NCBI RefSeq assembly: GCF_041886205.1
Contig: NZ_CP169029.1
DNA: 64,000 bases
Source of the DNA: Escherichia coli
GTDB lineage: Bacteria; Pseudomonadota; Gammaproteobacteria; Enterobacterales; Enterobacteriaceae
Reading direction: 5' to 3' (one strand)
Within the stretch, counting starts at the first letter, position 1, and each line of letters begins with the position of its first letter. A model generated the notes under the pieces. The model made no database searches. It saw only the letters and a program-made list of their open reading frames with translations, and was not told where the DNA came from. The translations under genes and the position numbers were made by a program. Below are positions 62,842 to 62,901 of the stretch, piece after piece.

Positions 62842-62846
62842 TATCT

Positions 62847-62877
62847 TAAGCCCTCTCCCGGTAGGTGAGGGCTTAAA
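62847..62877. terminator. hairpin between convergent ggt and yhhY
   Basis: Inverted repeat ttaagccctc...gagggcttaa. Confidence 0.4.
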
Positions 62878-62901
62878 TGGCAAACTTAGATTGCAAATTC
62901 T

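Follow-up and report, generated by a model that had tools for sequence, protein, structure and literature searches.

The 60-bp interval between ggt and yhhY in this Escherichia coli genome is likely the ancestral state of this convergent junction, without cargo, and was probably brought here by an imported tract that replaced an occupied allele. The window, i.e. the whole stretch of DNA that was analyzed, is 64 kb long. The anatomy of the junction, the frequencies of its forms in the population, the states of the site in outgroups and the mosaic structure of the flanks were observed directly. The coordinates of the features are collected in Table 1.

Table 1. Features of the ggt-yhhY region in the window, and of cassettes at the orthologous site in Citrobacter
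Feature	Coordinates	Strand	Remarks
ggt (gamma-glutamyltransferase), complete	61099..62841	+	TAA at 62839-62841
ggt-yhhY spacer, 60 bp, unoccupied "type-1" form	62842..62901		
GC-rich hairpin, 31 nt, common to both convergent genes	62846..62876		TTAAGCCCTCTCC-CGGTA-GGTGAGGGCTTAA; folds on both strands
Imported recombination tract, minimal extent	62838..63376		per-segment identities, informative sites, flank profile
yhhY, rare divergent allele; intact GNAT N-acetyltransferase of 162 aa	62902..63390	-	
Deeply divergent yhhY core	62950..63300	-	76.6% to K-12, 76-78% to every Escherichia allele sampled
RyhB sRNA gene, K-12-identical right flank, outside the variable region	63541..63605	+	Rfam RF00057, 83.1 bits
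Terminator-like site within the RyhB gene	63580-63598		terminator scan
ORF in the livF-ugpB gap	54600..55364	+	254 aa
Cassette, C. youngae	7690-9359		fetched locus
Cassette, Citrobacter sp. FP75	7695-9526		fetched locus
Cassette, C. werkmanii	7690-8604		fetched locus

Anatomy of the junction and its hairpin

The gene order at the end of the window is ugpE, ugpC, ugpQ, yhhA (on the minus strand), ggt, the spacer, yhhY, the RyhB gene and the start of yhhX. The names ggt and yhhY follow the RefSeq annotation of genomes that are 100% identical to the window junction. The original prediction had placed the two genes only about 60 bp apart, with a hairpin between the ggt stop and the yhhY stop. Both points were confirmed: the genes are convergent, their stop codons are separated by exactly 60 bp, and the hairpin lies between the two stops.

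Six independent complete RefSeq genomes were 100% identical to a junction-centred query of 1,060 bp, and an 80-mer across the spacer was matched in 988 of 5,426 E. coli genomes. With these matches, it is hardly conceivable that the window sequence was misassembled or collapsed here, and nothing specific speaks for such an artefact. The 80-mer was found at a median of one and a maximum of two places per genome among the 5,426. A REP-like dispersed repeat was ruled out, since nearly all genomes have one copy of the spacer and none has more than two. Rfam detected no known RNA family in the spacer, RyhB downstream being the sole match.

The stem of the hairpin consists of 10 GC-rich base pairs and two inner pairs. 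The predicted fold reached -21 kcal/mol on the plus strand (z = -3.25; 0 of 200 shuffles were as good) and -21.2 kcal/mol on the minus strand (z = -3.38 versus shuffles). A U-tract 3' of the stem is absent on both strands, the next nucleotides being AAATGGCAAAC on the plus strand and AAGATATTAAT on the minus strand. In both directions, T residues stand before the stem and A residues after it. The consensus terminator scan called no terminator in the 60-bp spacer. We infer that the hairpin may define or stabilise the transcript 3' ends of ggt and yhhY, its role in termination being putative. The CCCTCTCC..GGAGAGGG core of the window hairpin is kept in most Enterobacteriaceae spacers, as judged from individual folds of the spacers.

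Two alternative hairpins occur 3' of ggt among the short junctions of E. coli. Type 1, that of the window, is also present in ST131, E2348/69, 042 and EC10, which carry the same type-1 spacer. Type 2 (GGCCCTCTTC-GTGG-GAAGAGGGCT) was found in the short junctions of CH4793 and APEC E12049, and it also precedes the K-12, O157 and yrhB-only inserts. Since the hairpin type varies and type 2 is found both with and without inserts, the hairpin belongs to the ggt 3' end, where it is polymorphic, and does not belong to the cargo. The position of the cargo is between the ggt hairpin and the yhhY stop codon. The window provides a clean reference sequence for the empty site, and the empty site sets the exact bounds of the K-12 and O157 insertions: directly 3' of the ggt hairpin, up to the yhhY stop codon.

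Cargo of the site in K-12 and across E. coli

In K-12 (NZ_CP009789), 3,454 bp lie between the same two stop codons, and this interval contains yrhB, yrhD, an IS1A-family element, a truncated yrhA and tssD/yhhZ. The accessory segment with an IS1 copy and yhhZ, which the original prediction had named for K-12, is thus present there, and alignment of the junction showed that K-12 does not share the short form. Nothing of the yhhZ-yrhA-IS1-yrhB segment, predicted to be absent, occurs in the window: tblastn and blastn searches detected neither proteins nor DNA of the K-12 segment, nor a DUF4225 homologue, nor IS1 anywhere in the 64 kb. The ggt genes of the window and K-12 differ by one mismatch in 1,743 nt (T62838; C in K-12), i.e. 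they are 99.94% identical. The homology ends at the ggt stop codon and restarts exactly at the yhhY stop codon, and the 60-bp spacer showed no similarity to the K-12 island and its flanks.

These comparisons bear on whether a K-12-type cassette was excised in situ, by an IS1-mediated or illegitimate event that left a 60-bp scar. IS1 lies inside the K-12 cassette, and IS1 (MB53) and IS26 (GPEC657) are found at the junction elsewhere, which would suit such an event. However, the type-1 hairpin and the right half of the spacer have no match in the K-12 island or flanks, E. albertii and strains of phylogroup B2 have the same spacer, and the 23% divergence in the adjoining yhhY core would be left unexplained. 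In-situ deletion of the K-12 island is effectively refuted by the absence of the 60-bp spacer from the K-12 haplotype, and we consider it extremely improbable.

Without IS1, the K-12 island has a GC content of 34%, and ggt and yhhY have 55% and 52%, respectively. The cargo at the site has 32-34% GC versus 50-55% in the flanking genes, and this low GC content indicates that the cargo is foreign. In Pfam, YhhZ matched T6SS_HCP and, weakly and below threshold, an HNH nuclease, and YrhB matched Imm35, an immunity protein family. yrhA shares 4 bp with the end of yhhZ, an overlap expected of a cognate immunity gene, and it is probably the immunity gene of YhhZ. YhhZ has been described as an orphan "evolved Hcp" and as a polymorphic-toxin-type nuclease with a His-Me finger (PMC2907695, PMC5714182). 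Hcp-ET1, an HNH-DNase related to YhhZ, is a proven antibacterial type VI effector according to the summary of Ma et al. 2017 given in PMC6730261. The K-12 cargo is already recognised as an orphan "evolved Hcp" module, and its presence or absence is a difference of a known kind. Window-type strains do not have yrhA and yrhB (Imm35) at the site, and the rest of the 64-kb window has no copy either. Should the remainder of the genome also be without one, such strains may be sensitive to YhhZ-type toxins from competitors with type VI secretion.

No integrase or mobility genes were found in the K-12-type cargo. Around the K-12, EC571 and O157 islands, the search for target-site duplications and inverted ends gave only AT-rich repeats at chance level and the IS1 ends, with the exception of TR01. 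Since these hallmarks are absent from the three islands, site-specific insertion was rejected, TR01 again being the one exception. In this E. coli O157:H7 strain, the DUF4225 island lies between perfect 21-nt direct repeats, GTGAGGGCTTAAATGGCAAAC (positions 4207-4227 and 6007-6027 of the fetched locus). The 21-nt repeat is part of the empty-site spacer, and typical O157 strains have other flanks. The TR01 repeats could come from insertion into an empty spacer or from recombination on both sides.

The frequencies of the site states were surveyed in 5,426 complete E. coli genomes. The yhhZ-yrhA cassette was present in 3,766-3,830 genomes (~70%), and the DUF4225 island of 1.86 kb in 343 (6%; O157:H7/O55:H7 and a few others). 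The junction was contiguous within ~1 kb, i.e. short or near-short, in 1,238 genomes (23%). This number includes ~975-990 genomes (18%) with a strictly short junction of 49-60 bp; its remainder includes a yrhB-only insert of 431 bp and insertions of IS1 or IS26. The empty form is a minority state in E. coli. Taken alone, the empty junction of the window is ordinary strain-to-strain genome plasticity and of little weight.

Several single strains showed further states. In E. coli strain 455, the 431-bp insert (3501-3931 of the fetched locus) holds only yrhB (Imm35), an intermediate state with an orphan immunity gene and no toxin. The IS1 of MB53 and the IS26 of GPEC657 are inserted into window-type short junctions, so that the empty site is also an IS target. 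In E. coli HS-02, 385 bp of extremely GC-rich sequence (8011-8395 of the fetched locus) have replaced the yhhY 3' end together with the adjoining right half of the spacer; yhhY is annotated as a partial pseudogene in this strain, and the arrangement looks like an assembly artefact. Moreover, the plasmid NZ_AP022088.1 (184 kb) carries at 4189-4365 a 178-bp fragment of the ggt 3' region, 92.7% identical, under a hypothetical-protein gene.

Outgroup states and mosaic flanks

The outgroup sample consisted of the yhhY loci of 80 species representatives, in each of which ggt was located. In 77 loci, ggt was convergent just downstream of yhhY. The gap between the two genes was 34-164 bp in 64 of these 77 species, with a median of 68 bp and a range from Erwinia to E. 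albertii. It was 62 bp in E. albertii, 70 bp in E. whittamii and 60 bp in Escherichia sp. E1V33, the spacers of E. albertii and other non-coli Escherichia being 59-70 bp long. Short gaps were also found in most Enterobacter, Kosakonia, Buttiauxella, Raoultella, Leclercia and Erwinia. One strong hairpin was present in each of the short spacers that were folded, including all five taken from Escherichia genomes. The 60-62 bp spacers of E. coli E69, Escherichia sp. E1V33 and E. albertii matched the window spacer along most of its length. Because the outgroup gaps are short and have a related hairpin and spacer, the comparison supports the short form as the probable ancestral state of the ggt-yhhY junction, a polarity that within E. 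coli is drawn from the outgroups and the sampled lineages. Repeated precise deletions, each recreating the same spacer, are not credible.

Thirteen outgroup species had 0.5-5.3 kb at the site. The inserts of C. youngae, C. werkmanii and Citrobacter sp. FP75 carry homologues of the cassette in the K-12 order at the orthologous yhhY-ggt site. YhhZ homologues of 70-75% identity were present in all three species, YrhA homologues (66-68%) in C. youngae and a YrhB homologue (72%) in FP75. The toxin C-terminal region of the Hcp protein was swapped in two of the three. In addition, a 294-aa signal-peptide protein adjoins yhhY in all three species, and its C. youngae copy, the only one scanned, gave no Pfam match. 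Since the homologues lie at the same site, the cassette family is old or is moving between genera. Both the empty and the occupied state may be long-standing polymorphisms, and the ggt-yhhY site is a recurrent hotspot.

The comparison with K-12 was extended along the flanks. The yhhA-ggt block (~60300-62837) and the region upstream of yhhY were 99.7-100% identical to K-12. T62838, the sole ggt difference, is the base of most sampled short-junction strains. At the yhhY 3' end, 47 of the 48 nt next to the spacer matched K-12; identity was then ~77% over 62950-63300, a few further differences followed from 63300 to 63376, and the sequence was essentially 100% identical from 63376 through ryhB. 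Informative sites placed the left breakpoint at 62611-62838 and the right one at 63376-63440, with K-12-like sequence on both sides. The tract is 0.55-0.8 kb long and comprises the spacer and most of yhhY; it begins within the last ~230 nt of ggt and reaches as far as the 5' part of yhhY. Its spacer and yhhY core were 98.3-98.9% identical to TUM13936, 14EC033 and PapRG, and the flanks of these strains were only 94-98% identical to the window. The spacer was not inherited vertically together with its flanks; spacer and yhhY core are of another haplotype than the flanks.

The ggt 3' end of the window was present at an identity of at least 99% in ~2,505 genomes, and only 7 of them had a contiguous junction. 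Because the spacer and most of yhhY form a recombinant tract in K-12-like flanks, and because contiguous junctions are so rare among the genomes sharing this ggt 3' end, the empty state was probably re-imported, i.e. regained by homologous replacement, and not simply retained. The original prediction had suggested that the window may show the uninterrupted ancestral junction. The ancestral form is borne out by the short gaps in the outgroups, whereas the recombinant tract speaks against uninterrupted vertical descent in this lineage.

The alternative is that the cassette was never present in this lineage, that the empty site and the divergent yhhY are original, and that the K-12-like sides are two later imports. 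Recombination is indeed frequent here, the left flank being a patchwork of K-12-like and other blocks, and over 12 kb only five genomes match at an identity of at least 99%, the next best being ~97%. However, two imports would be needed with inner ends that bracket the same 0.55-0.8 kb, and a single short import is more economical. Furthermore, K-12-type ggt ends are joined to the cassette in ~99.7% of the genomes that have them. Retention by vertical descent is therefore regarded as unlikely.

Between 53500 and 62841 of the window, blocks with 95-96% identity to K-12 take turns with blocks of 99-100%, each a few hundred bases to ~2.5 kb long, and the whole liv-ugp-ggt region is a recombination mosaic. 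The term "K-12-like background" is therefore valid only for ~2.5 kb to the left and for 0.6 kb or more to the right. In EC10, an empty site has arisen a second time and independently, again with a K-12-like ggt; its breakpoint differs and lies inside ggt, and its yhhY allele is an ordinary one. The livF-ugpB gap is a second variable spot in the window: at 54500-55413 it is ~0.9 kb long versus 214 bp in K-12, and it contains an ORF whose O157:H7 orthologue carries the annotation tetratricopeptide repeat protein. In CH4793 and APEC E12049, the place upstream of ugpB is taken by a Phd/YefM-Doc toxin-antitoxin pair.

Under the preferred reading, replacement of an occupied allele by an imported tract, the ancestral spacer is short, and its only feature is a conserved GC-rich hairpin common to both gene 3' ends. 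In most E. coli, AT-rich, horizontally acquired cargo without mobility genes of its own lies between the hairpin and the yhhY stop. The commonest cargo is the K-12 type with yhhZ (Hcp-nuclease type VI effector), yrhA (probable immunity gene) and yrhB (Imm35), a cassette that in K-12 is also interrupted by IS1. Homologous recombination through the flanking core genes would swap occupied and empty alleles between lineages. In this genome, a tract of ~0.55-0.8 kb would have been imported from another E. coli lineage, so that a haplotype that is K-12-like in other respects received the empty spacer along with a yhhY allele of great age. The same event most likely removed the 3.4-kb cassette, which, we infer, the recipient carried before the import.

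The divergent yhhY allele and comparison with known systems

The yhhY allele class of the window was found in ~161 of 5,423 genomes (~3%), namely 34 at an identity of at least 99%, 125 at 95-99% and 2 at 90-95%. In the remaining 5,262 genomes, yhhY was 80-90% identical to the window allele. Among themselves, the ordinary alleles of Escherichia, those of E. albertii and E. whittamii included, share 90-96% identity, and in a neighbour-joining tree the window yhhY core was placed outside the whole genus. Compared with K-12, the window yhhY showed a dS of 1.09 and a dN/dS of 0.137. The dS between K-12 yhhY and that of E. albertii was 0.33, and it was 1.2-1.6 for Citrobacter, Pseudocitrobacter or Enterobacter. 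Because the dN/dS of 0.14 is combined with a high dS, the allele is old and constrained, not fast-evolving.

The product of the allele is an intact protein of 162 aa that matched Pfam Acetyltransf_1 (E = 4e-17) and is 85% identical to K-12 YhhY. Its full-length GNAT fold and its orthologous position between ggt and ryhB/yhhX identify it as a GNAT protein. In RefSeq, the annotated product name of YhhY refers to the detoxification of aminoacyl-nucleotide antibiotics, which is presumably its function. Our search found no literature linking YhhY to microcin C.

A donor of the divergent core was found neither among the 80 species representatives, where the best identity was 85%, nor in a collection of 5.8 billion proteins, where clusters of at least 94% carry only E. 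coli names and the next match is the ordinary allele at 85%. A tie between the divergent allele and the empty site was rejected: EC571 has the allele together with an intact cassette, and ST131, EC10 and CK188 are empty with ordinary yhhY alleles. The allele may come from an unsampled relative or may be a long-maintained polymorphism beside the hotspot. The trans-generic yhhY allele on the imported patch is thus a small, testable curiosity that bears on possible long-lived polymorphism of this kind.

A wider reading, which we offer as a speculative possibility, joins these observations. The gap 3' of the ggt hairpin would be a cross-genus landing site for one family of orphan Hcp-nuclease toxin/immunity cassettes. 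The lineage of the window would have lost the cassette through a ~0.6-kb import with a yhhY allele older than Escherichia (dS ~1.1, no known donor), which is perhaps kept in ~3% of E. coli by balancing selection on this enzyme with its annotated role in antibiotic detoxification.

The K-12 ggt-yhhY region has the same flanking genes in the same convergent orientation, and its yhhY 5' end, ryhB and yhhX are ~99.5-100% identical to those of the window. It differs in its AT-rich cargo of 3,454 bp, which has an overall GC content of 38% and follows a type-2 hairpin and a T-run, whereas the window has 60 bp of the type-1 form. The short junctions of E. coli ST131, E2348/69 and 042 resemble that of the window in the strong hairpin at the same position and in the spacer, which is 93-98% identical within E. 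coli. However, the other short-junction Escherichia have mostly the ordinary yhhY allele; the divergent one occurs in only ~3% of E. coli, including the window.

Like a bidirectional intrinsic terminator, the spacer presents one GC-rich stem-loop between convergent stops that folds equally on both strands. It differs from such a terminator in having no U-tract on either strand and in not being called by the consensus scan. The K-12 type-2 hairpin is unlike the window hairpin also in that ATTTTGT follows its stem. The usual occupant of the site resembles the Hcp-ET modules, since the Hcp domain and degenerate HNH of YhhZ are followed by the small genes yrhA and yrhB (Imm35), but the window has no part of the module.

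It is a general concept of pangenome biology that conserved core genes can enclose integration hotspots whose content is turned over by homologous recombination in the flanks. The literature searched contained no description of the ggt-yhhY site as such a hotspot. The site resembles these hotspots in having at least three alternative cargos and an empty state at one position, with low GC content, no integrase and no target duplication. The diversity of the flanking yhhY is also raised, the dS between K-12 and ST131 (0.31) being similar to that between K-12 and E. albertii (0.33). In contrast to core-gene hotspots in general, the ggt-yhhY site is limited in size, and its orthologous counterpart in Citrobacter holds members of the same cassette family.
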